A stretch of 64,000 bases of DNA, taken from the sequence record OR062947.1. The stretch is one strand, 5' to 3'. A model generated the notes under the pieces. It saw nothing but the letters and a program-made list of their open reading frames with translations. It had not been told where the DNA came from and did not search any database. Below, in pieces: positions 10,256 through 51,831 of the stretch (its first letter is position 1; each line of letters begins with the position of its first letter). The stretch comes from Escherichia phage 348Ecol098PP. A program made the position numbers and the translations under genes.

Positions 10256-10485
10256 TATTCATCGTCCTCATCATCTTCGTCTTCGTCGTCATCGCCTTCA
10301 TCAGCGTCGTCTTCCGAAGCTTTCTTTTCTTCTTCAGGTTCTTCGCCTTCAATCAAAAATTGAGACGCGATTTCTGCTTTGCGTGCTTCAATCAAACGAA
10401 CCGTTTTTTCTGCCATTGCACTTTCAAAAAACTTTCGAGTAGCAACGAGGTCGTTTGATTTAATAGCTTGAATTAAATCGTCCAT
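10255..10485 (-). CDS. 67: Prohead core protein gp67
   Basis: 76 aa with poly-acidic C-terminus [18 protein letters not shown]; between 20 and 68. Confidence 0.7.
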
Positions 10486-12140: not shown

Positions 12141-12632
12141 TTATTCCCACCAATCAAGAGCAAGAGTTACTTCGAACGTTTCAATCTCGTTATTCGAATC
12201 CCAATCAAGAGATACTTCACCGACGTTAGTAGGCCACAAGCCAACAATTTCAACTTCTTTAGTGACCGTTTTAGCATCACGAGCAAATTGACGAACGATA
12301 GCGGACTTTTTATATTCAGCAGGTTTACCACCGGTAATTTCATTACCTTGTCCTGCTGCAATACCTTGCCAATCAACAAATTTCTGACGAATGCTATGAG
12401 CATCATCGTTCATTACTGTAATAGTCCAATCATCGAATGTACGATCACCGGCCACGTTAATTTTACGGTTCATATAAGAAACAGGAACCTTTTCAACGAT
12501 CGCAGCAGGAAGAGCCGTAGCACGACACTGGAAGCTAAAGTTTTGCCCAAGATAAGAGATTTCTACTTCGAACAGGTTAGGGCGAGCGAAATCACCTGAT
12601 TCGAAGGCACGAGTTACGTCATCTACAAACAT
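12141..12632 (-). CDS. 19: Tail tube protein gp19
   Basis: 163 aa, same as T4 gp19; synteny. Confidence 0.9.
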   Translation of the reverse strand: MFVDDVTRAFESGDFARPNLFEVEISYLGQNFSFQCRATALPAAIVEKVPVSYMNRKINVAGDRTFDDWTITVMNDDAHSIRQKFVDWQGIAAGQGNEITGGKPAEYKKSAIVRQFARDAKTVTKEVEIVGLWPTNVGEVSLDWDSNNEIETFEVTLALDWWE

Positions 12633-38827: not shown

Positions 38828-38857
38828 GTTTACATAAAGATGATGGTGTGTTACTAT
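38828..38857 (+). promoter_or_regulatory. Early promoter GTTTAC / TGTTACTAT
   Basis: GTTTAC 38828-38833, 18-nt spacer, TACTAT 38852-38857. Confidence 0.55.
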
Positions 38858-38891
38858 CATCCTATCAAATAAACAGCCTCAAGGAAATAAA

Positions 38892-39203
38892 ATGAAAACT
38901 TATCAAGAGTTTATCGCTGAAGCTACTAAAGCCGATAAAAATTTTATTATTAACACCACCGGTCCGTTAGATGATGAATACGCTAATGCTATTATTAAGT
39001 CAATTTCTAATCAAGGCGTTGAAGTAACAAATTTCGAATATAAGAAAAATGATACTTATATGATAATTAGTATCAAAAAAGGTTCAAAGGCTAAAATTAA
39101 ATCTGCATTTGGTGTTATGCGAGTCGACCAAATCGATAACCACGATTTTTCACAAACAGGGGCCAAACGCCAAAACACCATTTCTTCTAAAGGCATAAAA
39201 TAA
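38892..39203 (+). CDS. Internal-protein-like, capsid-targeting leader MKTYQEFIAE
   Basis: 103 aa; N-terminal 10 aa identical to the remembered T4 IP capsid-targeting sequence ending ...IAE (gp21 cleavage context); early promoter upstream. Confidence 0.6.
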   Translation: MKTYQEFIAEATKADKNFIINTTGPLDDEYANAIIKSISNQGVEVTNFEYKKNDTYMIISIKKGSKAKIKSAFGVMRVDQIDNHDFSQTGAKRQNTISSKGIK

Positions 39204-39241
39204 TTTACAACTTGATAGGACTACTATATCATAGTCCTATC
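39203..39241 (+). promoter_or_regulatory. Early promoter-like element inside a 10-bp inverted repeat GATAGGACTA / TAGTCCTATC
   Basis: aTTTACa 39203-39209; IR arms 39214-39223 and 39232-39241. Confidence 0.45.
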
Positions 39242-39264
39242 AAAATAACCAAATGGAACCTAAA

Positions 39265-39528
39265 ATGAAAACTTTCAACGAATTCATCTCAGAATCGTCT
39301 GGTGTGAAAATTAACAAAGCGGTCAATCAGGTTATTGCTGATATTCTTAATTTGTATAACATTGACTTAACTCCGCATATCACGCTTGGTAACAAACGAA
39401 ACTTTTTCATATTTGACACATCCGAACTTGATGAAAATCAGTTCAATAACATTCAACGTTTTGCGAATGATAAAGGTCTTCGACACGAGCCTGGTGGCTA
39501 TAAAAAATACGCAATATATTTGAAATAA
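39265..39528 (+). CDS. Internal-protein-like, leader MKTFNEFISE
   Basis: 87 aa from internal Met of ORF 39253..39528; CTS-like leader. Confidence 0.55.
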   Translation: MKTFNEFISESSGVKINKAVNQVIADILNLYNIDLTPHITLGNKRNFFIFDTSELDENQFNNIQRFANDKGLRHEPGGYKKYAIYLK

Positions 39529-39530
39529 AG

Positions 39531-39560
39531 GTATACAAGCCTATAGGGATATGTTATAGT
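39531..39560 (+). promoter_or_regulatory. Early promoter GTATAC / TGTTATAGT
   Basis: -35-like 39531-39536, 18-nt spacer, TATAGT 39555-39560. Confidence 0.5.
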
Positions 39561-39597
39561 AGTCCTATCAAAACAAATGAGTAAATGGAGAAATAAA

Positions 39598-39783
39598 ATG
39601 AAACGCGCTGAACTGATTCGTAATGTTGCTGTAGTAATTGCTTCAATGGCTTTTAGTTTTTCGATGTTTGTAGGATTCATTTGTGGACTACTGACAACAA
39701 CTGAAAACTCTATCTCATTGGTAGTAGCATTTCTAATCGGCTTAATCGCTATCGTTATGGATAAAATTGCAAAAGGTGAGTAA
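39598..39783 (+). CDS. Small membrane protein
   Basis: 61 aa from Met with SD GGAGAA; two hydrophobic helices. Confidence 0.45.
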   Translation: MKRAELIRNVAVVIASMAFSFSMFVGFICGLLTTTENSISLVVAFLIGLIAIVMDKIAKGE

Positions 39784-39784
39784 A

Positions 39785-40147
39785 ATGAAATATCACGTAT
39801 ATGCGGATTTTGAAGCAAATCCTTCTAAAGACCCCGATTGTCGTTTGATACGCAGACCATTTGATTCAGCAGCTCAAGCCTGGGCCTGGATTAAAACTTG
39901 TACTCCTTCTTACACTTTCTTTGAAGTGGTAGATGATAACGGTGTTCTGCATCCAGAACCTACAGAAACTATTAATTTCCTTCTGTTTGCAGGTTATGAC
40001 TGTTATCCTCTTGGCGGTATTGATGATCTTGTTGCTACAGGAAAAACTGTTGAGGCTCTTCGCGAAATCTACAAAAATGCTGAAGAAAATTTTGACTGGT
40101 ATCATATTGTTGATGCTCATACCTTTGAAATGGTGGAACATTCATGA
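39785..40147 (+). CDS. Hypothetical protein
   Basis: 120 aa from MKYHVYADFE with SD AAGGTGAG. Confidence 0.45.
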   Translation: MKYHVYADFEANPSKDPDCRLIRRPFDSAAQAWAWIKTCTPSYTFFEVVDDNGVLHPEPTETINFLLFAGYDCYPLGGIDDLVATGKTVEALREIYKNAEENFDWYHIVDAHTFEMVEHS

Positions 40148-40434
40148 TTCTTTACGCTAAAATAAAATCTGTCGAGAACGGATATGAAAGCGACCGTCGA
40201 GCGGCTAAAGCATTAGTCGATGACTACGGTATTTTGACTATTTTTGAGGTTGAAAAGGTTTACATCGACCGTTCGTCTTCACAGGTCAAATTACTATGGG
40301 AAGACCGTAAATTTAATACAGTGAACTTTGATTTCTTTATTGAAACCGAATCAGGTCCTGTTGAATATGATATTTTCAAGAATCCTTTGAAATTACGTTG
40401 CATTGAATATAATTACATTAATATGGTACGGTGA
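40144..40434 (+). CDS. Hypothetical protein
   Basis: 96 aa ORF, ATGA-overlap with upstream gene. Confidence 0.45.
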   Translation: MILYAKIKSVENGYESDRRAAKALVDDYGILTIFEVEKVYIDRSSSQVKLLWEDRKFNTVNFDFFIETESGPVEYDIFKNPLKLRCIEYNYINMVR

Positions 40435-40438
40435 GTAA

Positions 40439-40954
40439 ATGAATATTTGTTTAGGCAGTACAATTCCTAAGGGTTACGTAATTGATGTCACTACTTGGGA
40501 AAATGACGGCGACAACTATAAAACCAAAACATTATTTGGTGTAGAAGAGCATGAGCTCCAACAGTTTAAATATCTCTTGAAGAAATTTAAGAGTCGTCAT
40601 TCTAGCACTAAAGCTGAACGTTACTGTGGTAATACACCATTCAGTGATTGCTCGCTTTTAATCTATGAATACTTGGTTGAAGGACTGTTCTCAGACCAGC
40701 TTTATCCAGAATTCATTAAAAAGGTCTTTGGTATTGAAGTCGACCTTGGTGATAAATCTGAAGAAGACGAAGCCCGCGTATTCGACCTGTTCTTTGTGAA
40801 AGGCGATGAGGTATCTCAAGGACTTATTGATATTCTTGGCTATGCTTCTGAATACTACGACTATGATTTCTTGCGTGTAGTTGAACGTGTTGAATTCGCT
40901 TATATTGAAGAAGAAATTGTTTTGCCGACTGTTAAAATGATTGATTTGCTTTAA
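40439..40954 (+). CDS. Hypothetical protein
   Basis: 171 aa ORF. Confidence 0.5.
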   Translation: MNICLGSTIPKGYVIDVTTWENDGDNYKTKTLFGVEEHELQQFKYLLKKFKSRHSSTKAERYCGNTPFSDCSLLIYEYLVEGLFSDQLYPEFIKKVFGIEVDLGDKSEEDEARVFDLFFVKGDEVSQGLIDILGYASEYYDYDFLRVVERVEFAYIEEEIVLPTVKMIDLL

Positions 40955-41033
40955 GAATTATGTGTTATTATTAATTCATACCCTCTATTACCAAAGGTGC
41001 TCTAAAGTGCCTTTCATAATAGAAAGTTATTTA

Positions 41034-41107
41034 GGCCCTGTAGCTCAACGGTTAGCAGCAGTCCCCTCATAAGGGAAAGGTTACCAGTTCGAATCTGGTC
41101 TGGGTCA
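41034..41107 (+). tRNA. tRNA with anticodon CAU (Ile2/Met type; T4 tRNA-Ile uses CAU)
   Basis: Hand-folded cloverleaf: acceptor GGCCCUG, T-arm ACCAG-UUCGAAU-CUGGU, anticodon loop CUCAUAA; one acceptor mismatch and a weak outer anticodon-stem pair; no encoded CCA. Confidence 0.55.
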
Positions 41108-41113
41108 TATATT

Positions 41114-41189
41114 CGAGGCATAGCTCAGAAGGAAGAGCAAGGACCTTCTAAGTCCTAGGTCGTAGGTTCGATCCCTACTGTCTCGACCA
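41114..41189 (+). tRNA. tRNA-Arg (anticodon UCU)
   Basis: Hand-folded canonical cloverleaf: acceptor CGAGGCA/UGUCUCG, D-arm GCUC-AGAAGGAA-GAGC, anticodon arm AGGAC-CUUCUAA-GUCCU, T-arm GUAGG-UUCGAUC-CCUAC, encoded CCA. Confidence 0.8.
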
Positions 41190-41207
41190 ACTTTAAGTGA
41201 GGAAAAT

Positions 41208-41552
41208 ATGAAAGGCAATATTTATCTGGTAGTTCATGATTTAACGTTTTATTTTAACGAATATGATACAGTTATTTCTCATCGATTGATTAATTCGCTG
41301 TATCAGCATGCCGATTACATTTATGTTCAAAATGAATTTGGACATTGGAAGTTCATTAAAAACCGTTCTGGGTTAACTAGTTTTGAATACTTTGATCGCA
41401 AAGACCTTTTAAACGAAATCCCATTGCAACATCGGTTCCAGAAACGCGAATCATTATATTATTGCCGTCATATACCAAACGCCGAATGTGTTAATGAAGC
41501 GATTAATCTATGGCGTCGGCGTCGAGAGCAAATTGATGATATGCCAAAATAA
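41208..41552 (+). CDS. Hypothetical protein within tRNA region
   Basis: 114 aa ORF between tRNA-Arg and structured RNA region. Confidence 0.45.
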   Translation: MKGNIYLVVHDLTFYFNEYDTVISHRLINSLYQHADYIYVQNEFGHWKFIKNRSGLTSFEYFDRKDLLNEIPLQHRFQKRESLYYCRHIPNAECVNEAINLWRRRREQIDDMPK

Positions 41553-41559
41553 GAAGCCG

Positions 41560-41812
41560 GGTCGCTACCGGTAAGTCGTCGGACTGATGTTCCCTGAGTA
41601 AGGACTGGTCTTAATAAATCTTTATGATTTGTTAATATCCCCTTACATCACAGCAGAAACGGCGCACAGAATTATCGATTCGAGGAAATATCTTTGCCGT
41701 AAGCCGAGTAGCGTTTTTGACGGAACGTTCGGATATGGTCGAGATATGGCCTTTTAAAAATATTGAGTAGCGTCAACTACTTAATAACCGGGTTCGAATC
41801 CCGGCGTTTCGT
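41560..41812 (+). ncRNA. Candidate stable small RNA(s) with tRNA-like 3' end (comparable to T4 RNA C/D species)
   Basis: ~375 nt ORF-free region; canonical T-arm CCGGG-UUCGAAU-CCCGG at 41788-41804 with 7-bp acceptor pairing (41721-41727 with 41805-41811) but no canonical anticodon arm; followed by terminator. Confidence 0.35.
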
Positions 41813-41851
41813 ACAAACACTTACTTAGTAGGTGGAAACCCCGACAAGGTA

Positions 41852-41884
41852 TATAGCCCCTTCCGAAAGGTTGGGGCTTTTTTG
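41852..41884 (+). terminator. Rho-independent terminator after tRNA/small-RNA region
   Basis: AGCCCCTTCCGAAAGGTTGGGGCT + TTTTTT; same module as 57113-57145. Confidence 0.65.
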
Positions 41885-41892
41885 TATAAATA
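41885..41892 (+). promoter_or_regulatory. Late promoter TATAAATA upstream of the 208-aa CTS-bearing gene
   Basis: TATAAATA 36 nt upstream of ATG 41928. Confidence 0.55.
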
Positions 41893-41927
41893 TAGTAAAC
41901 AATAAACCTACTTTCTAAGGACCGTCA

Positions 41928-42554
41928 ATGTATACTTTTAATGAATTTTTAGCCGAAACGGAAGTAATCACCGAAGCCGGTGTACGTATGACAAAAGAGA
42001 AATGGCAAGCTGCTTACGATGCTATTTCTGGTACAAAAACTAGTACAGAGTTTTTCAAAAACGTTCAAGCCATGTACGGTATCGACACTTCCAGCCAAAA
42101 AGAATATTACAGAGCTTCTAAAGCATTCAAAGATATTGTTAGTGGTGGTGTTTCTGCTAAATCGGGTTCGCCTAAAGTAAAACCTGCTCCTACCATTCCT
42201 AAACCTGCGACCCCTAAAGCAATAGCAAAACCTGAGCCTAAGCCGGAAGTAAAAGCAACTCCTAAAGCTCCTGCTCTTAAGTTTGATACTTCTAGCCTGG
42301 AAAAAAAATATAAACAACTATCTTCGCTTGTTCGCGATATTGAATCCGATACATCTTCACTCGTTCGTGAATTCAATAGTCTTCGTAATGGCCAACATAT
42401 CAACAACCTTGATACCCCGGACCTTTATCGTCTTTATTTGACTATCGAAGGTTTGAAGTACACTCAACCACTTCACGACGCGATTAAAGAAAAACTTCGT
42501 CAGGCAGGTCGTTTGGCTGCTGACGCTGCTCAGTATGCAAAAACTCGTAAGTAA
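41928..42554 (+). CDS. Internal-protein-like (large), leader MYTFNEFLAE, proline/lysine-rich linker
   Basis: 208 aa; CTS-like N-terminus; PKVKPAPTIPKPATPKAIAKPEPKPEVKATPKAP linker; TATAAATA late promoter at 41885-41892. Confidence 0.55.
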   Translation: MYTFNEFLAETEVITEAGVRMTKEKWQAAYDAISGTKTSTEFFKNVQAMYGIDTSSQKEYYRASKAFKDIVSGGVSAKSGSPKVKPAPTIPKPATPKAIAKPEPKPEVKATPKAPALKFDTSSLEKKYKQLSSLVRDIESDTSSLVREFNSLRNGQHINNLDTPDLYRLYLTIEGLKYTQPLHDAIKEKLRQAGRLAADAAQYAKTRK

Positions 42555-42555
42555 A

Positions 42556-42585
42556 GAATGGGGACTTCGGTCCCCTTTAGGGGGT
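42556..42585 (+). terminator. Rho-independent terminator
   Basis: GGGGAC-TTCG-GTCCCC then TTTAGGGGG. Confidence 0.55.
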
Positions 42586-42606
42586 CTATAACTTACTGAA
42601 AAAGTT

Positions 42607-42635
42607 GTTTACTTCTTCCCTAGATGTGTTACTAT
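42607..42635 (+). promoter_or_regulatory. Early promoter GTTTAC / TGTTACTAT
   Basis: GTTTAC 42607-42612, 17-nt spacer, TACTAT 42630-42635. Confidence 0.55.
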
Positions 42636-42663
42636 AGACCTATCAAAACACGTGGAGAATATT

Positions 42664-42969
42664 ATGAGTCTTTACACTGAACTGAATAAAAAATCTGAAG
42701 AATCCGCTGAAACTATTTTTAAAAACGTGCAAAAGCGTATTTTAGAAAAGATGTATAACACTGCAGCTAAAGGTGAAAAATCTTGCCGGTTTCCGATTAG
42801 GTGTTCTTCAGATTTATGCGCAAATACTATTGAATGGCTGGAAAGTGAAGGTCTTACAGTAGAGAAAAACCCGGCGACTTCTATTGACGGCGAATCATAT
42901 ATTAGTATTTCTTGGGATAAACCACGTATGAATGAAGGACACTACAAGTTGTTAAGTTGGAAAAATTAA
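42664..42969 (+). CDS. Hypothetical protein
   Basis: 101 aa from MSLYTELNKK with SD GGAGAA; early promoter upstream. Confidence 0.45.
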   Translation: MSLYTELNKKSEESAETIFKNVQKRILEKMYNTAAKGEKSCRFPIRCSSDLCANTIEWLESEGLTVEKNPATSIDGESYISISWDKPRMNEGHYKLLSWKN

Positions 42970-42978
42970 AAATAATGA

Positions 42979-43007
42979 TGTACAAGCACCAAGGATGGTG
43001 ATACTAT
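42979..43007 (+). promoter_or_regulatory. Early promoter TGTACA / TGaTACTAT (duplicate of 6395-6404 -10 region)
   Basis: TGTACA 42979-42984, 17-nt spacer, TACTAT 43002-43007. Confidence 0.55.
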
Positions 43008-43043
43008 AGACTTATCAACTACAGAGGAGTAAACAAAATGACT
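42998..43043 (+). repeat. 46-bp exact duplicate of 6395-6440 (promoter -10, 5'UTR, SD, ATGACT)
   Basis: gTGATACTATAGACTTATCAACTACAGAGGAGTAAACAAAATGACT at both loci. Confidence 0.8.
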
Positions 43044-43202
43044 ACTTTAATTATTTGGTTCGATGAAAATGAAGAAACATACTGTGTGAATATTGGTGAA
43101 AGTCCAATGCCTGAATTTGAATCCTCAGATAAAAACTCTGTTGTATCTTGGGCTGAAGGTTATAAAGCAGCTAAAGGTGACGTTGAAATAATTTACATCT
43201 AA
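43038..43202 (+). CDS. Small hypothetical protein (54 aa)
   Basis: Below ORF-track cutoff; preceded by the exact promoter/5'UTR cassette also found at 6395-6440. Confidence 0.35.
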   Translation: MTTLIIWFDENEETYCVNIGESPMPEFESSDKNSVVSWAEGYKAAKGDVEIIYI

Positions 43203-43220
43203 GTAAGTTTATGTTATAGT
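43191..43220 (+). promoter_or_regulatory. Early promoter ATTTAC / TGTTATAGT
   Basis: -35 43191-43196, TATAGT 43215-43220; followed by AGTCCTATCAAA box. Confidence 0.5.
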
Positions 43221-43248
43221 AGTCCTATCAAATCAAGAGGAAAACAAA

Positions 43249-43476
43249 ATGGCTAAAGTTAGTATTGATGTCGTTGATTATGAATACACCGAAGAAGTTA
43301 TTCGCAACCGTCACCCTGAAGTTCGTATCGATTCAGCCCAAGATTCCAAGTTCTGGACAACTGAGCTTAATCTGAGTGGTCCTTATGAAGCTGTTAAGAA
43401 GTTCATGGTTGAAGAATACTGCGAAGGCATGCACCCGGAAGACGCCAAGTTTTATGTCAATTTGATTAAAAAATAA
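43249..43476 (+). CDS. Hypothetical protein
   Basis: 75 aa ORF with early promoter. Confidence 0.45.
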   Translation: MAKVSIDVVDYEYTEEVIRNRHPEVRIDSAQDSKFWTTELNLSGPYEAVKKFMVEEYCEGMHPEDAKFYVNLIKK

Positions 43477-43511
43477 TTTACAAACTCTTGAGAGCAGAGT
43501 ATAATGCTCTC
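43477..43511 (+). promoter_or_regulatory. Promoter TTTACA / TATAAT with GAGAGC/GCTCTC inverted repeat around the -10
   Basis: TTTACA 43477-43482, 17-nt spacer, TATAAT 43500-43505; IR 43490-43495 / 43506-43511. Confidence 0.5.
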
Positions 43512-43546
43512 ATTGGATAATAAACCACCAATTGAAAGGTAATAAT

Positions 43547-44140
43547 ATGAACACACTGAAGAAACTTGTCGAATTCATCCGCACTAAATTGGGTACTGCT
43601 ATGGCTAAAAATCTGACTGTCGAAGAACAGTATAACGCAGCTGCAGATAAGTTGATTACCCAAATCAAAGAACTAAAAACGGCTTCTGTTAAATCTATTA
43701 ATGAAGAAAAACGTATTCGCGAACTTGTTAATGAAAAGAACAAGCAAGCCGCTTCTAAGGAACGTGAAATTCGTAAGCTCCTGGCCGAAGGACAAGATGT
43801 TACCATGCATGCTAAGCTTGGTCTTCTGTATCGTCGAACTGCCGAACAACTTAATACAAAAGCTGACGGGTATGCCGCTATGCGAATTGAAATTGCTCGT
43901 AAGGTGGTTGAACTTGATGATGCTCGTCAGAACCTGGCAATCAAACTCGAATACATTCGTGAAACTCGAGCAGCCAATGCCCTTGGTATCTCTACGGCCG
44001 ATGATGTAATTGAAATCGCTGCACTGACTAAGGTTGATATCGAAGACACTCTGACTCGTGTTGAAACGTTCAATGGCACTCCAGCAGGTGTCGAAACCAC
44101 TTCTGCTGATGTACAAGAATATATTAACTCTTTGAAATAA
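43547..44140 (+). CDS. Coiled-coil protein with PspA/IM30-like character
   Basis: 197 aa from [10 protein letters not shown]; long amphipathic heptad pattern; segment pattern reminiscent of PspA (weak, by eye). Confidence 0.35.
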
Positions 44141-44148
44141 AATAATAC

Positions 44149-44170
44149 GGAGGACTCCGGTCCTCCTTTT
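44149..44170 (+). terminator. Rho-independent terminator
   Basis: GGAGGAC-TCCG-GTCCTCC + TTTT. Confidence 0.55.
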
Positions 44171-44189
44171 GGATAATAAAGGAGTTAAC

Positions 44190-44792
44190 ATGCGAAACCA
44201 AAATAATGATATTGACTCAATGTTCGAAGAGTTCCGAGATAAGGTAAATCCACCTACGTCTTTAGTTGATTCATTACGATATGTTGCAACCGGACGTAAA
44301 TGGTACTGGTCGTCTTCTTATGAGACCACCGAGAAAACGGCTAGCCATAGCAGAAAATCTTTATTAGCCCCAGGTATTATGATTCATGATATCGGAGCTA
44401 TTGCTAAACTAGTTGCAGATCATGATATTAGATTCACCGATTTCGTTGCTCCTACATGGTCTGTTTGTTGTTTAAACACTGAATTGGAATATATCAGCGA
44501 ACGCTCTGAAGATTATTATGGTTTTAGAGATAAGCTTCTGAGGTCTAATATGTTTTATATCGATACAGAAGTTCTAGTCGATAATAAAAAATATTACTTT
44601 ACGTTAATCATCGATTCTGAAACTATGTATGAAGGCAAGCCTTTGCTTAAAAGAGTTGATGCTTTAAGTGCTATTGATGCGCTTTATGAAACCATGGTTG
44701 TTAGTCCTAATTTCACTAACAATTTAATCCTTGAGCAATTTATTATGGAATGTAGAGAATATGTCAAAGCCAACCCTGTACATGCCAAGTAA
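44190..44792 (+). CDS. Hypothetical protein with C-terminal FIMECR tail
   Basis: 200 aa from MRNQNN; ends ...EQFIMECREYVKANPVHAK. Confidence 0.45.
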   Translation: MRNQNNDIDSMFEEFRDKVNPPTSLVDSLRYVATGRKWYWSSSYETTEKTASHSRKSLLAPGIMIHDIGAIAKLVADHDIRFTDFVAPTWSVCCLNTELEYISERSEDYYGFRDKLLRSNMFYIDTEVLVDNKKYYFTLIIDSETMYEGKPLLKRVDALSAIDALYETMVVSPNFTNNLILEQFIMECREYVKANPVHAK

Positions 44793-45153
44793 GCCCTGGG
44801 CATACGAATACAAACGTAAATTAATCCCAAACGAAGTACTATTTGGCCCTATTTTAGCTTTAGCATTTTTAATCTTTATGATTATAGGAGCTGTTTTAGA
44901 TTCTAGTGAAGTTATATCGTCTGATGCAGTGTTTTTACTTATTATAGCTGGGTCGTTTATTGTGCCATTTTTATTAATGCCTATTAATTGGGTGGGATAT
45001 TGGTACCAAGGACGTCATCACAGAGCTAGAGTACGCGAATGGAAAATTCAATGTGCAAAAGCAAGAGCTCAATATGACGAGGCTGTTAAAAAATATGAAT
45101 ATGACGAAGCCATGGAATTCGTTAAGGAGATAAGATGCAAAAGCCTGAACTGA
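44761..45153 (+). CDS. Small membrane protein with C-terminal EFVKEIRCK tail
   Basis: 130 aa from ATG at 44761; two hydrophobic helices. Confidence 0.45.
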   Translation: MSKPTLYMPSKPWAYEYKRKLIPNEVLFGPILALAFLIFMIIGAVLDSSEVISSDAVFLLIIAGSFIVPFLLMPINWVGYWYQGRHHRARVREWKIQCAKARAQYDEAVKKYEYDEAMEFVKEIRCKSLN

Positions 45154-45162
45154 ATTTATGCT

Positions 45163-45192
45163 GTTTACGCTTCTCAAATGATTAGTTATAAT
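45163..45192 (+). promoter_or_regulatory. Early promoter GTTTAC / TATAAT
   Basis: GTTTAC 45163-45168, 18-nt spacer, TATAAT 45187-45192. Confidence 0.5.
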
Positions 45193-45255
45193 GAACTCCT
45201 AGCTAGACGTGAAAATGAAACAATCGAAAACTTTATTAAGGAATGTAGAAAATGA
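45178..45255 (+). pseudogene. Vestigial 25-codon ORF retaining the ENFIKECRK tail
   Basis: MISYNELLARRENETIENFIKECRK; contains the -10 of the promoter for the next gene, so likely a remnant 3' end. Confidence 0.3.
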
Positions 45256-45557
45256 GTAAGATTATTGAAATTAAAGTACCAGAGTTTAATGATGCCAAAT
45301 CCGCTTCAGATGCAATTTATAAACTTCTGAATCAAGCTGAACGTATCGAAGAAGAAGCAACAAAGATCGCAGACCAATATGCCGTATCATTTTCTGTAGG
45401 TGATTATGGTAGCGGTCGTACTTATTATCCTAAGGGTGAAATCGTATCCCAGTGGATGAAAAATGAAATTGAAAATAATGGTGGCGATGTTAAGCGTGAA
45501 GGTAATGGTTACGTTATTACTGAAGGTGCTTGGGTTTCGTCTTCTGCGTTGTGCTAA
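45252..45557 (+). CDS. Small protein, WVSSSxxC-tail family member 1
   Basis: 101 aa; ends GAWVSSSALC. Confidence 0.5.
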   Translation: MSKIIEIKVPEFNDAKSASDAIYKLLNQAERIEEEATKIADQYAVSFSVGDYGSGRTYYPKGEIVSQWMKNEIENNGGDVKREGNGYVITEGAWVSSSALC

Positions 45558-45566
45558 GGAATCATT

Positions 45567-45839
45567 ATGTCTAAAGAACAAACCGAACTGGCTGAAGCTG
45601 TAGCAAAAATCTATGCAGCTATTGAGGCTGCCAAAGAAATTGCTGATAAACAAAACACAACATTCGACTTGCACCCAGCTTATGGTATGGGTGGAACCTA
45701 TCATTCACCCGGACATCTTAAAGCCGATCTTGAACGTTGTACAAAAAACGGCTATGCTGAATGGGCTGACGTTTACCAATACGACTACAACCTGAGCCTC
45801 GAAACTGGTGGTTGGGTCGCATCTTCTCACACTTGCTAA
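45567..45839 (+). CDS. Small protein, WVSSSxxC-tail family member 2
   Basis: 90 aa; ends GGWVASSHTC. Confidence 0.5.
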   Translation: MSKEQTELAEAVAKIYAAIEAAKEIADKQNTTFDLHPAYGMGGTYHSPGHLKADLERCTKNGYAEWADVYQYDYNLSLETGGWVASSHTC

Positions 45840-45848
45840 GGAAACTAT

Positions 45849-46046
45849 ATGTCTCGTGAATTAGATTGTGCTGTACGTACCGCAGTAGCTGCCCTGGAAA
45901 ACCTGTTCCAAATTGCAACAGAAGAACGCGAAGAAGTTACATTGTGGATTGAAGATAACGCAGGTCTGAATCTCCAGGACGCGATCTCATTATCCCACAA
46001 TAGTATCACTGTTCAAGGCTGGGTATCATCTAGTTATTCTTGCTAA
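45849..46046 (+). CDS. Small protein, WVSSSxxC-tail family member 3
   Basis: 65 aa; ends QGWVSSSYSC. Confidence 0.5.
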   Translation: MSRELDCAVRTAVAALENLFQIATEEREEVTLWIEDNAGLNLQDAISLSHNSITVQGWVSSSYSC

Positions 46047-46050
46047 AACA

Positions 46051-46088
46051 GTTTACAACAAGATAGGGCTATGTTATAGTAGTCCTAT
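46051..46088 (+). promoter_or_regulatory. Early promoter GTTTAC / TGTTATAGT with imperfect IR ATAGGGCT / AGTCCTAT
   Basis: GTTTAC 46051-46056, TATAGT 46075-46080. Confidence 0.55.
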
Positions 46089-46108
46089 CAAATTAAATGG
46101 AGTCCACA

Positions 46109-46348
46109 ATGATTTATTACGAAAGTATCGGAACCAAAGTGGTTGCTAAAACCATTACTCGTGAAAAGTTTGCAAAGATATTCGATATGCGTTATAAAAA
46201 ATCTGAACACAAAGGCATCCGATTCGAAGATGCGCACTGTACAATTTGCCCTTATAATGAAGACATAAACGGTACAATCGTTCCATTGGTAGAGGCTTCA
46301 CACGATGACCTCTGGGATGAATATGATATCGCATGTCGTGAAATTTAA
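46109..46348 (+). CDS. Hypothetical protein
   Basis: 79 aa from MIYYESIG with SD GGAG. Confidence 0.4.
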   Translation: MIYYESIGTKVVAKTITREKFAKIFDMRYKKSEHKGIRFEDAHCTICPYNEDINGTIVPLVEASHDDLWDEYDIACREI

Positions 46349-46376
46349 GTTAATGAATTAATCCGAGGAAAATATT

Positions 46377-47333
46377 ATGATGTTAGTTATTGGTTCTCGT
46401 GCACTTCACTATCACGGTCTTATTGATTCTAGCGCTATCAAAAATAGTGATTGGGACTTTATTGCGGACCAAGGTTCTTGGAATGCATTCAAAAATCAAA
46501 TGATGGGTGTATATGTTCACCAAGATAACCCTAATGTTCAAGTTTTCAAATGCTTCCATAATGGACGCGAAACTCATTTTGAAGCATATATTGTTCCGGC
46601 AATCACTAATGTCCGTGAATTAGTCGGTGAACTCACTCCTGAAGATTTCACGTCTTCTTATGACCTTTTAAAATACGCCAAGAAAAATTTGACTAAAGAC
46701 CGTTTGAACGGGTTTTACTGGGCAACTCCTGAGATATGTCTTGCAATTAAGATGTCTCATCGTTTCAAGAAAAATAATCCATTCTTTTTAAAGACTATGA
46801 ACCATATTCAGTATCTTCGTGGTAAAGGTGTTACACTGAACGATGAACTTACTGAAATTATGCTGAAACGCCAGAAAGAAACCTTGAACTATGCTCACCC
46901 AGTTCTTGACACTTCTAAAAGTGCGTTCTTTAAAGATGACATCTATACATATGACCATGATACTATTCATGAAGCCATTGCACTAACAGACCGTCCAGCG
47001 TATACATTTTATATGAAAGATGGTTCTGAAGTCATGACCTCACGCGAGAAGTTCGAATCGTTACCCGAAATGATTAAACTGGCTGGTGTATACGAAGAAT
47101 CATGTGTACTAGCATTAGAACGTTCTCAAATTCCTAATGACTTTAAAATTAACCCTGAAGCCAGTTTTATGATGGCATTGGAAAAAGTCTGTACAAGCAT
47201 CACCTCCGGTTGGTTCCGTGAATACGCATACGAGAACTATTATGAAGTAGTGGCTATGTATCATAAGCTCGGCAAAAATGATTACGTCAAACGTTTCAAA
47301 CAAAATTTCCATATGGTAAAACCTTTCAAATAA
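46377..47333 (+). CDS. Hypothetical protein (318 aa)
   Basis: Long ORF; N-terminal IGSRAL...SDWDF loosely resembles a nucleotidyltransferase motif (weak). Confidence 0.45.
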   Translation: MMLVIGSRALHYHGLIDSSAIKNSDWDFIADQGSWNAFKNQMMGVYVHQDNPNVQVFKCFHNGRETHFEAYIVPAITNVRELVGELTPEDFTSSYDLLKYAKKNLTKDRLNGFYWATPEICLAIKMSHRFKKNNPFFLKTMNHIQYLRGKGVTLNDELTEIMLKRQKETLNYAHPVLDTSKSAFFKDDIYTYDHDTIHEAIALTDRPAYTFYMKDGSEVMTSREKFESLPEMIKLAGVYEESCVLALERSQIPNDFKINPEASFMMALEKVCTSITSGWFREYAYENYYEVVAMYHKLGKNDYVKRFKQNFHMVKPFK

Positions 47334-47345
47334 CTTCACAAAACT

Positions 47346-47383
47346 GTTTACGCAATTATAGGACTATGTTATAGTAGTCCTAT
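47346..47383 (+). promoter_or_regulatory. Early promoter GTTTAC / TGTTATAGT inside IR AATAGGACTA / TAGTCCTATT
   Basis: GTTTAC 47346-47351, TATAGT 47370-47375; IR arms 47357-47366 and 47374-47383. Confidence 0.55.
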
Positions 47384-47403
47384 TAAAACATGAGGAGAAT
47401 ATT

Positions 47404-47709
47404 ATGAAATTAGGCGAAACCAACCGAATTGGTCTTTTAACAATATTTGCATCACCTTTTTACGCAACTCTTTCTGTTGCAGTATTACAAAAGGCTTACA
47501 GTATGGATGGTGTTCCTGGTTTTGTATTCTTATCACCGTTTTTATTATTCGTCGGAGCTTTGTTATTATATGCCACGACTAGTTTCGACCATAATGTCTG
47601 GGTCAATTATAAATGTAAATTGTCCGAAGAAGAACACGCAGAAGCTCGTAAAAAAGCTATTGAATCTACCAATCTAGAAAATTTCATTAAAGAATGTCGA
47701 GGAAAATAA
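47404..47709 (+). CDS. Small membrane protein with C-terminal ENFIKECRGK tail
   Basis: 101 aa; two hydrophobic helices. Confidence 0.5.
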   Translation: MKLGETNRIGLLTIFASPFYATLSVAVLQKAYSMDGVPGFVFLSPFLLFVGALLLYATTSFDHNVWVNYKCKLSEEEHAEARKKAIESTNLENFIKECRGK

Positions 47710-47710
47710 T

Positions 47711-48397
47711 ATGAATAGTTCTAAAGTGTTTAATAGTCAAGCTCGTGCAGTAGGTGGTTTTGCTCATGCGATTAAAAACGACCAGATTAAAAACGAGCCT
47801 ATGTTCTTTAACTGCGATTTGAATTTTGCTTTTGATAATGGTGGTCCAATTACTCGTAGCTTTATCATGAACTTGCCAGATGATTGGAACACCGACCAGG
47901 TTGTATTTGATTCACGAGTCCACATGCTGATGCCAGGTTGGTACCCTGCTATTCCTGGATATCACCATGACGATGTTCCACGCCCTGATATTCCAGTTGG
48001 TCAACACTTTATTACTGCAGGACAACCTGACTATGACAATCCTCGTTATTTGTCTGAACATATTCTTGGTCTTGTTAACGCTGATGTGTGTCCTACTCAT
48101 TTTGCAACAGGAACTGCAGAGTTCAGTCAGATTCCTGATGGCGAACTTATCTATCGCCAGTGGCACAAAGAAGTCCTCGAAAAAATTGAAAAAGGTGAAC
48201 TAGAGAAATGGGAAGCTCCAGATCGTACTCTTCTTCAGTTTGATTGGCAAACATGGCACACTGGTTCTCGTGCAATTAGTAACGGATGGCGTTGGTTCGG
48301 ACGTGTATCTCGTAATACAGACCGAGTTAAAAAGATTACCAATGAAATTCGTGTCAACGCTCAAGTTTATCTGGAATTCCCTATGGAAGGCTGGTAA
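47711..48397 (+). CDS. Hypothetical protein (228 aa)
   Basis: Starts 2 nt after previous stop; His-rich PGYHHDD segment. Confidence 0.45.
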   Translation: MNSSKVFNSQARAVGGFAHAIKNDQIKNEPMFFNCDLNFAFDNGGPITRSFIMNLPDDWNTDQVVFDSRVHMLMPGWYPAIPGYHHDDVPRPDIPVGQHFITAGQPDYDNPRYLSEHILGLVNADVCPTHFATGTAEFSQIPDGELIYRQWHKEVLEKIEKGELEKWEAPDRTLLQFDWQTWHTGSRAISNGWRWFGRVSRNTDRVKKITNEIRVNAQVYLEFPMEGW

Positions 48398-48876
48398 TGA
48401 TTAACAATAATATAGACGATGGCAATGAAGGTATTTCGTATTATTCAGTAGATTGGACAGGATGTCCATCCTACTTAGTGAAACATATTTGCCAAGAATT
48501 TAAAATCGACCAGCCAGCAGGTATTATCGTGAACAGATACATTAATGGATATCAACCTATCGATGAAGTAATACGAACAACTCAAGCTGAGCTTGAAAAG
48601 TTTTTCAATAAGTGCCAATGGATAACAGGATGGATTATATTTGTACCGTCGGTATGGTTTTTCGGTACTAAGGTGAGTTCTTTCGGTTTTGTTGATATTA
48701 TTGCTATCTTATTAGCATCTACTATCGTAAGTATTATTGGTGGTATTATTGGTGGAGGTACTGTAGGCATCATTATTAATCTTGTTAAAAGTAGTTTACA
48801 GGAACGTAAAGACAAGATAAAAGCCAAGAATAATGAAGTTGAACGTTTTATTACCGAATGCAGGAATTTGAGATGA
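48397..48876 (+). CDS. Membrane protein with C-terminal ERFITECRNLR tail
   Basis: 159 aa; Gly/Ile-rich helices IIGGIIGGGTVGIII. Confidence 0.5.
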   Translation: MINNNIDDGNEGISYYSVDWTGCPSYLVKHICQEFKIDQPAGIIVNRYINGYQPIDEVIRTTQAELEKFFNKCQWITGWIIFVPSVWFFGTKVSSFGFVDIIAILLASTIVSIIGGIIGGGTVGIIINLVKSSLQERKDKIKAKNNEVERFITECRNLR

Positions 48877-49109
48877 GTATAGCAATTTACGTTAAATCAG
48901 AATCATGTGATAGTTATCTGTACACATACGATAAAGATGTGTCAGAAGAAAAAATCAAAGACGACCTTAATATGGACCTTGATATGTTCTGTCCTATTGC
49001 AGATTACAAACTTGCGGTCTCTAATAGTGAAAGTCCATCTAAAGAAACGCGCATTGAAGAATTTATGTCCGAATTAATGGCCAAATCATGGGACCGAGAT
49101 GATGAGTAA
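48873..49109 (+). CDS. Hypothetical protein
   Basis: 78 aa from ATG overlapping previous stop (ATGA). Confidence 0.4.
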   Translation: MSIAIYVKSESCDSYLYTYDKDVSEEKIKDDLNMDLDMFCPIADYKLAVSNSESPSKETRIEEFMSELMAKSWDRDDE

Positions 49110-49557
49110 GAAAAATAAAGTGAAAGAACTATCAGCCGGTATTATTTTCCTTACCGAAGATAAAGAGTTATTCATGGGGCGTGTAACTGGTTCTCGTCCT
49201 AAAGGTGCATTAGCTCATCGGTGGGATATTCCTAAAGGCCGTGTCGAACCTGGCGAATCTCCTATTGAAGCCGCTATTCGTGAATGCGAAGAAGAAACTG
49301 GGTTTACACAATATGACCCTGCCTTCCTGAAAGACTTAGGTGAACGTCATTACTCAGACAATAAGAATATTCATCTGTTCCAATATACCATCCCTGTAGA
49401 GCACGAGCAATTCAGAAACAGTGTTTGTAATTCCTATCATACATTCCCAGACGGACGTCAGATTCCTGAATTTGATGCATTCGCTTTAATTAAACCTTCT
49501 CAATGGGAATATGTAATGGGCAAATCATTATATAAGGTGCTCACTACCCTCCTATAA
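49099..49557 (+). CDS. nudE: Nudix hydrolase
   Basis: 152 aa; Nudix box GRVEPGESPIEAAIRECEEETG; immediately upstream of e as in T4. Confidence 0.8.
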   Translation: MMSKKNKVKELSAGIIFLTEDKELFMGRVTGSRPKGALAHRWDIPKGRVEPGESPIEAAIRECEEETGFTQYDPAFLKDLGERHYSDNKNIHLFQYTIPVEHEQFRNSVCNSYHTFPDGRQIPEFDAFALIKPSQWEYVMGKSLYKVLTTLL

Positions 49558-49565
49558 GTAATAAA

Positions 49566-49589
49566 TACCTCCTATAAACGTGGGAGGTA
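49566..49589 (+). promoter_or_regulatory. Gene e translation-initiation hairpin: IR TACCTCC / GGAGGTA with TATAAAcg in the loop
   Basis: Arms 49566-49572 and 49583-49589; right arm is the SD of e; loop carries a late-promoter-like box. Confidence 0.5.
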
Positions 49590-49591
49590 TT

Positions 49592-50080
49592 ATGAATATA
49601 TTTGAAATGCTTCGTAATGACGAAGGTCTTAGACTGACTTTATATAAAGACACTGAAGGCTTTTGGACGATTGGCATAGGCCATTTAGTAACAAAGAACC
49701 CGTCTTTAGCCGTAGCTAAAGCTGAACTTGACAGAATGATCGGTCGTAAATGCAACGGTACAATTACCCTTGATGAGGCTGAAAAGCTATTTAATGAAGA
49801 CGTTGATAAAGCCGTTCGCGGAATCTTGGGTAATGCTAAACTTAAACCGGTATACGATTCTTTAGATGCAGTTCGTCGATGTGCATTGGTCAATATGGTC
49901 TTCCAAATGGGTGTAGCAGGCGTCGCCGGTTTTACTAATTCTCTTCGTATGCTTCAACAGAAACGTTGGGATGAAGCGGCAGTAAATCTAGCCCAATCTA
50001 AATGGTATCGTCAGACACCTAATCGCGCGAAACGCGTAATCTCAACATTTAAAACAGGAACTTGGAAAGCGTATATATGA
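49592..50080 (+). CDS. e: Endolysin (T4 lysozyme)
   Basis: 162 aa from [32 protein letters not shown]...; close match to remembered T4 lysozyme. Confidence 0.95.
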
Positions 50081-50358
50081 AAACATATAGTGAATTTTTA
50101 TCAGAATCTATTCTTAACGAAGCTACTGACACATTTGCAACTAAGCTAGGTGCAGCTTTGGTTGAAGCTGAAAGTCTATTAGCACGTATTTCTGAACTTG
50201 CTAGTAAGATAGATACTCGCAAATTTGAGCGCACCAGTGATATCGTTAAGCTTGAAGCCTTATTGCGTATGTGCGATAAACCGGAAGAAATCGCTAAGAA
50301 CGGCTCGCTGATGAAACAACGTCTTGAAAAATATATTTCAGGCGCTTCAGAAAAATAG
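50077..50358 (+). CDS. Internal-protein-like, leader [10 protein letters not shown]
   Basis: 93 aa; start overlaps e stop (ATGA); CTS-like leader. Confidence 0.55.
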
Positions 50359-50359
50359 T

Positions 50360-50413
50360 GTTTACTTCCTCCAAGGGTTTTGATACTATACATTCATCAA
50401 CTACTTGGAGGAA
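50360..50413 (+). promoter_or_regulatory. Early promoter upstream of denV with 10-bp IR TTCCTCCAAG / CTTGGAGGAA pairing the -35/-10 spacer with the SD
   Basis: GTTTAC 50360-50365, TACTAT 50384-50389; IR arms 50366-50375 and 50404-50413. Confidence 0.6.
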
Positions 50414-50416
50414 ATT

Positions 50417-50830
50417 ATGACTCGTATCAATTTAACACTTGTTTCTGAACTGACCGACCAACACCTTATGGCTGAGTATCGTGAATTACCACGCGTATTT
50501 GGTGCAGTCCGTAAACATGTTCAAAACGGTAAACGTGTAAAGGATTTTAAAATCTCTCCAACATTTATCTTAGGCACAGGTCACGTAACATTCTTTTACG
50601 ACAAACTCGAATTTTTACGTTTACGACAAATCGAGCTAATCGCTGAATGTTTGAAACGTGGTTTCAAAATCAAGGACACGACAGTCCAGGATATTTCCGA
50701 CATCCCTGCCGAATTTCGTAATAATTATGTCCCGTCCGAAGCGTCCATTGCGATAAGTCAAGCGCGCTTAGATGAAAAAATTGCTCAACGTCCGACTTGG
50801 TACAAATACTATGGTAAATCAATTTACTAA
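50417..50830 (+). CDS. denV: Endonuclease V (pyrimidine dimer DNA glycosylase)
   Basis: 137 aa from [12 protein letters not shown]...; close match to remembered T4 DenV. Confidence 0.93.
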
Positions 50831-50836
50831 GGAAAA

Positions 50837-51097
50837 ATGAAAATGTATCAAGAATTTATCGTTGAAGCAGATGCCAAAGGTCCTAAATTTAAAGTTAAAG
50901 CTTTCATTGGTGATGCGGAAGACTTTGGCTCATTAAAACGTAATGGGTATTCTTTCTTAGGTGGCAATGGTAAAGAAATCAACACCTATGCAAAACGTAG
51001 TGAAATTGCTTATGTTGTAGCAAGTCCTAAAGTAGATGTTGACGATATTGGATATGATTTTAACAACTTCGGAATTATTTCTGGCGGTAAAGCTTAA
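50837..51097 (+). CDS. Internal-protein-like, leader MKMYQEFIVE
   Basis: 86 aa; CTS-like leader. Confidence 0.55.
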   Translation: MKMYQEFIVEADAKGPKFKVKAFIGDAEDFGSLKRNGYSFLGGNGKEINTYAKRSEIAYVVASPKVDVDDIGYDFNNFGIISGGKA

Positions 51098-51100
51098 ACG

Positions 51101-51130
51101 GTTTACGCTTAAGTATTAATATGGTATAAT
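51101..51130 (+). promoter_or_regulatory. Early promoter GTTTAC / TGGTATAAT
   Basis: GTTTAC 51101-51106, 18-nt spacer, TATAAT 51125-51130. Confidence 0.55.
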
Positions 51131-51161
51131 TACTCTATCAAAACAAACAAGGAAACAAAAA

Positions 51162-51476
51162 ATGAAAACGTATAAAGAATTTATTGCAGAATCCGCCAAC
51201 CAACGCGTTGAAGGTGGTTATATTTGGATTGAACAAGTTGAGCCACCGAGCCGCACTTCTACAGGTAAATGGAAAATTACTGTTGACGGTCCTGGCGGTA
51301 AACGTAGGACTCTTAAAGAAATTAATGGGTACTATGAAGAAGCTCTTTCGGATGCAGGAACTTACATGATGCAAATCATGATTAAAAACCCTGAAAACCG
51401 TTTTGCAGCTAAAGTCTTCCGTCGTATTGGTAATAAACTTTATGATGCATACTCTAAAAACTTCCCTAAAGAATAA
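51162..51476 (+). CDS. Internal-protein-like, leader MKTYKEFIAE
   Basis: 104 aa; CTS-like leader; early promoter 51101-51130. Confidence 0.6.
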   Translation: MKTYKEFIAESANQRVEGGYIWIEQVEPPSRTSTGKWKITVDGPGGKRRTLKEINGYYEEALSDAGTYMMQIMIKNPENRFAAKVFRRIGNKLYDAYSKNFPKE

Positions 51477-51501
51477 CATAAATTAAAACAATAGGAACAA
51501 A

Positions 51502-51831
51502 ATGAAAACATATCAGGAGTTTATCACTGAAGTTACATTATCTGCGGAACAGAAAGCTGCTATCGAAGAAGGTAAAAATCCCAAAGTAACATATAAAGTA
51601 AATAGTAAAGGCGTTTTTGATGGCTTGGTTCAAGACCCTGAATTGAAAAAAGTTCTTTCTAAAACTAATGCGTACTTTGCTCCTAAATTTAACACAGCCG
51701 GTGTACTTATTGGATTGGATGTATTCAACTCTAAAGGTGTTCTATCTAATGCCTTTGGTTATGCCGCTAACAAAATTACCAAAGCCGCATGGGAATCCAA
51801 TACTAAACAAGCTCAAAAGCCTAGAGTATAA
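51502..51831 (+). CDS. Internal-protein-like, leader MKTYQEFITE
   Basis: 109 aa; CTS-like leader. Confidence 0.6.
   Translation: MKTYQEFITEVTLSAEQKAAIEEGKNPKVTYKVNSKGVFDGLVQDPELKKVLSKTNAYFAPKFNTAGVLIGLDVFNSKGVLSNAFGYAANKITKAAWESNTKQAQKPRV

Follow-up and report, generated by a model that had tools for sequence, protein, structure and literature searches.

Seven genes with T4-type capsid-targeting leaders in a Mosigvirus genome: loci, body families and probable roles as internal proteins

Leader-bearing genes and their loci

The DNA analyzed in the present work is a stretch of 64,000 nucleotides from Escherichia phage 348Ecol098PP (sequence record OR062947.1), the whole of which is referred to below as the window. 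Seven open reading frames (ORFs) on its plus strand, designated here by their first position, open with a capsid-targeting leader of the type carried by the internal proteins (Ips) of phage T4, and all seven were found at the starts given in a first-pass annotation of this DNA. They are 38892 (leader MKTYQEFIAE, 103 residues in total), 39265 (MKTFNEFISE, 87 residues), 41928 (MYTFNEFLAE, 208 residues), 50077 (a 10-residue leader, 93 residues), 50837 (MKMYQEFIVE, 86 residues), 51162 (MKTYKEFIAE, 104 residues) and 51502 (MKTYQEFITE, 109 residues).

The leader pattern proposed in the first-pass annotation, M-K-T-[YF]-[QNKS]-E-F-[IL]-[ASTV]-E, holds in five of the genes and fails at one position each in the other two, the deviations being Tyr for Lys at position 2 of 41928 and Met for Thr at position 3 of 50837. 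According to Mullaney & Black 1996, as far as that work is relayed in PMC9026906, targeting of T4 IPIII requires an aromatic residue at position 4 and Phe at position 7, while its processing requires Ile or Leu at position 8 and Glu at position 10; these four positions are kept in all seven leaders. On a seven-position score, leader-type ORF starts number seven in the window and zero in 100 shuffles, and a chance origin of the seven leaders is excluded. A looser threshold applied to the whole window revealed no extra leader ORF, the long IPI type included. The leader of 38892 is identical in BLASTP comparison to that of T4 IPII and IPIII, which bears out its identification as the T4 capsid-targeting sequence. 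The residue that follows Glu10 is Ala, Ser, Thr or Val in the window, and Ala, Ser or Thr in 127 of the 144 leaders of the survey described below. Synonymous codons vary between the seven leaders, and the leader is thus conserved as a peptide and not via recent gene conversion. Each of the seven starts is preceded, 8-12 nucleotides upstream, by a Shine-Dalgarno-like site of the GGAA type, which favors the start at 39265 over the upstream ATG at 39253. The predicted isoelectric points (pI) of the mature forms lie between 8.2 and 9.7 in six of the seven, and those of the T4 internal proteins between 9.0 and 9.65.

The 13-kb region that harbors the genes is ~96% identical to the genomes of the Mosigvirus phages moskry, mar005P1 and RB69, and the phage is an RB69-like T-even phage of the genus Mosigvirus. 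The gene order is that of RB69 and T4: 57A/57B, the ipI locus, trna.4-trna.2, two tRNA genes (Met and Arg), e.8-e.2, nudE, e (lysozyme), denV and vs.8. The two classical ip loci, from 57B to trna.4 and across e-denV-vs.8, hold six of the seven genes, on the same strand as in T4. The leader anatomy and these locus positions are direct observations, and so is the presence of the head proteins with which the leader would interact, all encoded on the minus strand. The gp22 scaffolding core protein lies at 8343-9155 (Pfam T4_CASP, E 1.5e-89) and the gp21 prohead protease, which would be responsible for removing the leader, at 9189-9830 (Pfam Peptidase_S77, E 2.8e-107), with the gp20 portal at 10485-12056. 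Both gp23 (6757-8325; FLTE/A at residue 66, the slash marking the cut here and below) and gp24 (5050-6333; MSKIQKLLRE/S at the N-terminus) retain their canonical cleavage sites, which agree with the [IL]-x-E motif that processing of T4 IPIII requires.

The first gene of the ipI locus, 38892 (38892..39203, plus strand), codes for an Ip7-family protein, from which cleavage at MKTYQEFIAE/A is predicted to leave a mature form of 93 residues with a pI of 9.5. The protein is 96% identical to RB69 ORF156c and 67% identical to T2 ip7, and its relatives in public records are labelled 'Ip7 protein' (in Enterobacter phages) or 'internal head protein'. Its AlphaFold2 (AF2) model, with a mean predicted local distance difference test score (pLDDT) of 68, suggests a β-α-β-β-α ferredoxin-like core at residues 16-72, followed by a basic disordered tail. 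Searched against the PDB, the model gave generic ferredoxin-like, ACT and RRM matches only (best E 0.016), and IPI* was absent from its top 50 structure matches.

The second gene of the locus, 39265 (39265..39528, plus strand), codes for an Ip9-family protein with a predicted mature form of 77 residues and a pI of 9.0. It is ~72% identical to Ip9 of RB32 and to ip9 of VR20/25/26, RB15 also carries ip9, and the label 'internal head protein' is attached to it in SF, Av-05 and phiE142. Compared with Ip5, Ip7, Ip9 and Ip10 of T2, RB15/RB32, PST and phage Pol, the window copies are diverged Mosigvirus versions. Between the same flanks, 39265 occupies the position that ipI has in RB69, mar005P1 and T4. 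No ipI ortholog was found in the window, while one is present in RB69 (L001:954-1253) and in mar005P1 (L002:593-880). The IPI of T4 and RB69 (Ip1, IPI*), an inhibitor of the GmrSD of CT596, thus shares the locus position of 39265, but has its own leader of 19 residues, cut at ITE/A, and the present phage, lacking IPI, is predicted to be sensitive to CT596-type GmrSD. Another known protein of this locus, Bas37_0260 of phage KarlGJung, has in common with the window the leader, the ipI locus and the two-gene arrangement there, but its body belongs to a cluster (C3) that is missing from the window. This McrBC inhibitor was therefore ruled out as the identity of either ipI-locus gene.

The e-denV-vs.8 cluster, on the plus strand throughout, begins with 50077 (50077..50358), an Ip5-family protein with a second potential cleavage site, LNE/A, at residue 15. 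It is 48-54% identical to T2 ip5, bas37_0261 and PST ipV and is annotated as 'internal head protein' in UniRef and RefSeq. The T2 ip5 gene resides at the ipI locus, whereas the Ip5-like gene of the window resides at the e-denV locus. Its ATG overlaps the stop codon of the lysozyme gene e (ATGA, 50077-50080), which suggests translational coupling between the two genes; in T4, ipIII follows e after a gap of 87 nucleotides. The next gene, 50837 (50837..51097; MKMYQEFIVE/A), begins 6 nucleotides after denV and encodes a candidate internal protein that is 94% identical to RB69 ORF125c and occurs in 217 phage records. It is annotated as 'internal head protein' in ST0, SHSML-52-1, LF82-31 and CGG4-1, with no named Ip family. 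The product of 51162 (51162..51476; MKTYKEFIAE/S) is an Ip10 ortholog, near-identical to Ip10 of phage Pol (CAA84455.1), with which it shares a 90%-identity cluster, and 72% identical to 'Ip10' of SP18. The last gene, 51502 (51502..51831; MKTYQEFITE/V), is 'hypothetical' in every record examined, and its family is narrow, comprising Mosigvirus proteins together with relatives of ~36% identity in AnYang/WG01-type phages. T4 IPII and IPIII (Ip2 and Ip3), which have GmrSD targets of their own (PMC12373910), share with this cluster the e-denV locus and strand, and with the window genes more broadly the leader, the promoter-like layout and a small, basic product; their bodies have no similarity to any of the seven.

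Relative to the window, the RB69 reference (AY303349) bears three lesions in this cluster, at 12499-12545, 13583-13855 and 13924-13959. In ORF127c, a compensated -1/+1 frameshift scrambles the leader (MKTYMNFYQN); ORF124c (Ip10) is truncated by a +1 G insertion; and ORF123c, the RB69 copy of 51502, carries E10A (GAA to GCA). The lesions represent either decay of a laboratory strain or early sequencing errors. Elsewhere in the region, three tandem small ORFs on the plus strand (45252-45557, 45567-45839 and 45849-46046; 101, 90 and 65 residues) share the C-terminal motif G-x-W-V-[SA]-S-S-x-x-C (GAWVSSSALC, GGWVASSHTC and QGWVSSSYSC, respectively) and look like a small paralog family.

Promoter stem-loops, cassette exchange and diversity of the bodies

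Early-type promoter-like sites on the plus strand precede three of the genes. The site upstream of 38892 (38829..38861; TTTACA-17-TACTAT) is TG-extended and has a 9-bp inverted repeat across its -10 element (38839-38847/38853-38861). The site between the two ip genes (39204..39243; TTTACA-17-TATCAT) contains a perfect 12-bp inverted repeat (39212-39223/39232-39243), and the site upstream of 51162 (51102..51130; TTTACG-17-TATAAT) is again TG-extended, with only a weak repeat. Summarized as TTTAC[AG]-17-TAnnnT, the sites before 38892, 39265 and 51162 match the layout of T4 ipI, ipII and ipIII, 60-80 nucleotides upstream. The published consensus of promoter stem-loops (PeSLs), elements said to mediate modular shuffling, is TTTACW-N17-TAYWAT (PMC4122927), and the defining combination of a promoter and a stem-loop beside variable genes is present at 38829 and 39204. 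Inverted repeats across the -10 element were ruled out as a feature specific to ip genes, since several other early-type sites in the window have them. Near-identical palindromes, GATAGGACTA ... TAGTCCTATC, span the -10 element at 39204, 46052, 47347 and 57608 (and partly at 39532 and 43192); they lie upstream of several small variable genes and match published PeSL elements.

Comparison with related phages locates the limits of exchange. At the ipI locus, homology with RB69 extends from 57B through 38892 and the promoter to position 39291, i.e., 27 nucleotides into the leader, and resumes at 39531, such that the body alone (39292-39530) has been swapped, being Ip9-like in the window and IPI in RB69. 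Homology with mar005P1 breaks 23 nucleotides into the first leader (38914) and likewise resumes at 39531, which is the PeSL before trna.4. At the tRNA-side locus, the homology with RB69 is lost after 41891 and picks up again at 42656, and the e-denV-vs.8 cluster is collinear and 98% identical. As in the PeSL cassettes described for T4-type phages (Arbiol 2010; Comeau 2014), such elements flank the ip cassettes of the window, and the 3' breakpoint at 39531 lies at one of them. Unlike those cassettes, however, the 5' breakpoints of the ipI locus (39291 and 38914) fall within leader coding sequence, and the leader thus also provides homology for recombination. The observed breakpoints show that cassettes are swapped between the leader and the next PeSL, which is an addition of the present analysis.

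The number of internal protein genes was assessed by scanning for leader ORFs within ±10 kb of denV and 57B in T4-like contigs and in RB69, mar005P1 and T4. The survey yielded 175 leader ORFs (144 unique), all on the strand of the anchor gene, whose bodies form 28 clusters at the level of BLAST similarity. The ORFs concentrate less than 1 kb after 57B and around denV, with a minor site 3-5 kb after 57B. In the 26 T4-like genomes with both loci covered, the count ranges from 1 to 7 (median 4). The seven genes of the window equal the highest count, and each of RB69 and mar005P1 has 6. For T4 the count is 2, since a leader of the long IPI type escapes the strict score. The contrast of seven genes with three in T4, which the first-pass annotation had singled out, therefore loses some of its force. 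The bodies of all seven genes belong to clusters that are present in other contigs.

The complete divergence of the bodies beyond the leader, claimed earlier, holds at the sequence level apart from one weak pair. In an all-versus-all BLASTP of the seven proteins, matches were marginal or did not extend past residues 10-11. When the bodies alone were scored by Smith-Waterman against shuffles, 38892/39265 was the only pair to stand out, and weakly (z = 4.4, 2/300 shuffles), and hhalign among the profiles of the 28 body clusters gave no pair above 30% probability. PHROGs co-groups 38892 with 50837, and 51162 with 51502 (phrog_2667 and phrog_3966); the distant paralogy that this grouping would imply has no support in hhalign or Smith-Waterman comparison once the leader is stripped, and the grouping is probably a merging driven by the leader. 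None of the seven bodies shows similarity to T4 IPI, IPII or IPIII in BLASTP beyond the leader, in profiles or in Smith-Waterman comparison, so that orthology to these proteins, raised earlier as a possible trivial explanation, does not account for the bodies. Pfam assigned no domain to the seven proteins, and a PDB sequence search with them returned nothing below E 0.04.

The exact sequences of all seven proteins are already public, e.g., in phages SF and 348Ecol098PP. Ip7-like genes are found in ~26 phage records at >=90% identity and Ip9-like genes in ~26 at >=95%, while the denV-side genes are found in 76-232 records at >=90-95% identity. Four of the seven fall into named families (38892 in Ip7, 39265 in Ip9, 50077 in Ip5 and 51162 in Ip10), and five are annotated as internal head proteins somewhere in public records; 41928 and 51502 are the only two for which each record examined gave 'hypothetical', and neither has a named Ip relative in those records. 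These family assignments, like the exchange breakpoints, are direct observations. According to papers that cite it, Repoila et al. 1994 described the leader-bearing, polymorphic Ips of T-even phages, and at least 10 Ips have been reported (PMC12373910). The Ip names, together with the short record Z35082 of phage RB15, which carries ip5, ip9 and ip7, appear to trace back to that work. The earlier expectation that this is the part of the window most likely to hold undescribed biology is thus not borne out, as the class has been known since 1994. In one 90%-identity cluster, 50837 is lumped with denV proteins, possibly via fused ORF calls. Such distortions, in this cluster and in PHROGs, appear to explain why the siphovirus protein KS_S4 CDS0075 bears the label 'internal head protein'.

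The diversity of the bodies bears on the idea that some or all of the seven proteins are mainly structural fillers of the head, which would neutralize or organize the DNA or aid core assembly with no specific host target. The basic nature of six of the seven mature forms would suit this role, as would the ~1000 internal protein molecules embedded in T4 DNA (PMC3012670), and none of the seven has a known target. Yet a generic filler would not need at least 28 unrelated body families, nor would it account for differences in presence and absence between near-identical phages. Moreover, the three Ip genes of T4 are reported to be dispensable, and each of their products has a specific target (PMC12373910), while the product of 50077 is not basic. 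A purely structural role is therefore considered improbable.

A third locus and leaderless relatives of the Ip9 body

The remaining gene, 41928 (41928..42554, plus strand), resides at a third site, beside the tRNA genes. A terminator-like hairpin (41855-41883) and a T4 late-promoter motif, TATAAATA (41885-41892, plus strand), lie upstream, the motif 43 nucleotides from the gene, and the same motif, TATAAATA, occurs upstream in all five surveyed members of this body cluster. The protein comprises the leader MYTFNEFLAE, a second site (ITE/A) at residue 16, a helical N-domain, a linker rich in Pro, Ala and Lys (residues ~75-118) and a conserved three-helix C-domain. Its AF2 model is all-helical, with a mean pLDDT of 73, rising to ~90 in the C-domain, and a disordered linker. 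A fold search with this model was uninformative, the best PDB match having an E value of 2.5 and BFVD returning the protein's own family only.

Relatives of 41928 form 18 clusters at 90% identity, with 13 representatives at 50%; wherever a relative has a named source or lies on a long contig, it comes from a T4-like phage. Nearly all full-length relatives that were read start with a variant of the leader, e.g., MKTYNEFLNE, MLKFKDILTE or MITFNEFLNE, and the second site, [IL]-x-E/A at about residue 16, is nearly invariant in the family. Two representatives have a different C-domain. RB69 carries other genes at this site, including ORF149c with the leader MKTYAEFLTE.

For 41928, and for the genes with early promoters, the leader may be viewed as an inherited relic, the protein acting in the cell without being packaged. 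The Tyr2 of 41928 and its third locus would agree with this view, and so would the early-type promoter-like sites at three genes, the activity of leaderless IPIII when expressed in the host, and the Ip9 body, which, judging by its conservation, works leaderless in other phage families. Conversely, the leader peptide is conserved despite synonymous change and between orthologs that share no more than 45-70% identity in the body. The 41928 family itself keeps the aromatic residue at 4, Phe at 7 and the nearly invariant [IL]-x-E/A at residue 16, always with a late promoter, and the packaged internal proteins of T4 have the same early-type promoter layout. The relic explanation is accordingly very improbable.

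Relatives of the Ip9 body (residues ~16-87 of 39265) that lack the leader occur in Kagunavirus, Seuratvirus and Kuttervirus. The Kagunavirus protein JSSK01_64 (L118:2507-2725, 72 residues) is 57% identical (E 9e-23), with in-frame stop codons upstream, and the Seuratvirus relative is the 74-residue KS_S4 CDS0075 (L119:2492-2716) mentioned above. In Kuttervirus, the Ip9-like part forms the C-terminal ~75 residues of the 755-residue pertopsoe_86 (L120:467-2734). The DNA of both Seuratvirus and Kuttervirus bears hypermodifications of other kinds. The leaderless relatives fit a scenario in which a gene already present in phages would have been captured and fused to the leader. Regarding pertopsoe_86, its gene adjoins those of 'structural protein' products, and its N-terminus (L120:467-530) reads MAIPSFLNFLEE/SKQLDE/A, in keeping with the T4 leader pattern [FY]-x-x-F-[IL]-x-E. 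A large head protein with such a leader may thus exist in Ackermannviridae.

Function and implications of the internal protein set

The seven genes are quite probably the Mosigvirus set of T-even internal proteins, for which a mechanism can be proposed. Each protein would be made with the N-terminal capsid-targeting sequence, by which it would enter the gp22 scaffolding core while the prohead is being assembled, as described for T4 (PMC3012670, PMC9026906). The protease gp21 would cut after the Glu of [IL]-x-E at residue 10 or, in 41928 and 50077, perhaps at a second and better conserved site (residue 16 and residue 15, respectively). The small, mostly basic mature protein would then stay in the head with the DNA and be injected alongside it, whereupon it would most likely inhibit at once, stoichiometrically, one variant of a host nuclease that attacks sugar-modified cytosine DNA, belonging either to the GmrSD family or to another type IV enzyme such as McrBC. 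The diversity of the set would be maintained by cassette exchange, in which the leader or the upstream promoter serves as the 5' homology and the next PeSL as the 3' homology. Packaging, cleavage and injection are proposed here by analogy with T4, and the anti-restriction role and the nature of the targets by analogy with Ip1, Ip2, Ip3 and Bas37_0260 only.

The role of injected counter-defense proteins, which the first-pass annotation had suggested, agrees with the accepted view of this class (PMC3012670; PMC12373910; 10.1101/2025.11.20.689424). Ip1, Ip2 and Ip3 each block one GmrSD variant, and GmrSD variants have been proposed as the targets of both Ip loci (Silas et al. 2025, PMC12373910). 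IPIII is needed on strain ECOR17, where the leaderless protein still works when expressed in the host (Srikant et al.), and the leader-bearing Bas37_0260 from the ipI locus blocks McrBC (HIDEN-SEQ preprint, 10.1101/2025.11.20.689424). In phages of the RB69 type, the cytosine of the DNA is arabinosylated, and RB69 IPI is reported to protect against the GmrSD of CT596. Since the DNA of this lineage has arabinosylated and not glucosylated cytosine, the targets of the seven proteins may be restriction enzymes that have yet to be characterized.

Several points weigh against this interpretation of the set. Assayed against 15 GmrSD groups, ip4-10 of T4-like phages gave no reproducible inhibition (PMC12373910), and a GmrSD target is thus unproven for the Ip5, Ip7, Ip9 and Ip10 families. 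Bas37_0260, the sole Ip from outside T4 with a known target, has no homolog in the window, and no virion proteomics or N-terminal sequencing of Mosigvirus Ips was found in the searchable literature. The structure prediction that had been suggested as a check on the bodies produced models of moderate confidence for 38892 and 41928, but no functional clue. The product of 50077, with a mature pI of ~6.3, is the sole non-basic form among the seven. Finally, 41928, with its Tyr2, is far larger than the other six and lies outside the classical loci, at what is a minor hot spot in the survey.

Some of these points raise the possibility that the proteins are packaged and injected, but act on targets other than GmrSD, such as McrBC-like nucleases, modification-dependent nucleases specific for arabinosyl-cytosine, or unrelated defenses. 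The lack of reproducible GmrSD inhibition by ip4-10 and the action of Bas37_0260 on McrBC both argue for such targets. The arabinosylated, rather than glucosylated, cytosine of Mosigvirus points in the same direction, as does the occurrence of the Ip9 body in Seuratvirus and Kuttervirus with their differing DNA hypermodifications. On the other side, all three T4 Ips with known targets act on GmrSD variants, and Silas et al. 2025 propose the same for both loci as a whole. Targets outside the GmrSD family are hence a tentative alternative, to be taken seriously but held with less than even confidence.

The feature is real and was correctly recognized; the first-pass annotation was right in kind, the class having been known for three decades and most of its members already named. 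The known picture of how the Ip class works is unchanged by these results. What is new here are the limits of cassette exchange, the leaderless relatives of Ip9, and the recognition that 41928 belongs to a family of helical proteins with two domains and a late promoter, located at a third site. This family may constitute a class of its own, driven by a late promoter, ~200 residues in length, with a conserved second site in the leader, a helical N-domain, a linker and an exchangeable C-domain, at a third locus by the tRNA genes. A more far-reaching joint reading, in which 41928 represents an unrecognized third class of injected head protein and the Ip9 body a widely shared counter-defense domain captured by T-even phages, appears rather unlikely.

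Host immunity meets the injected internal proteins before any other phage molecule, and the known targets are those of Ip1, Ip2, Ip3 and Bas37_0260 only. The families of 41928 and 51502, 'hypothetical' in the records examined, could be relabelled, and the leaderless Ip9 relatives offer a route to the function of the body outside the T-even phages. Should the reading of Ip9 as a shared counter-defense domain be true, the domain could be directed against one host system encountered by phages whose DNA hypermodifications differ, and the seven genes would provide an entry to nucleases that recognize arabinosylated cytosine DNA.

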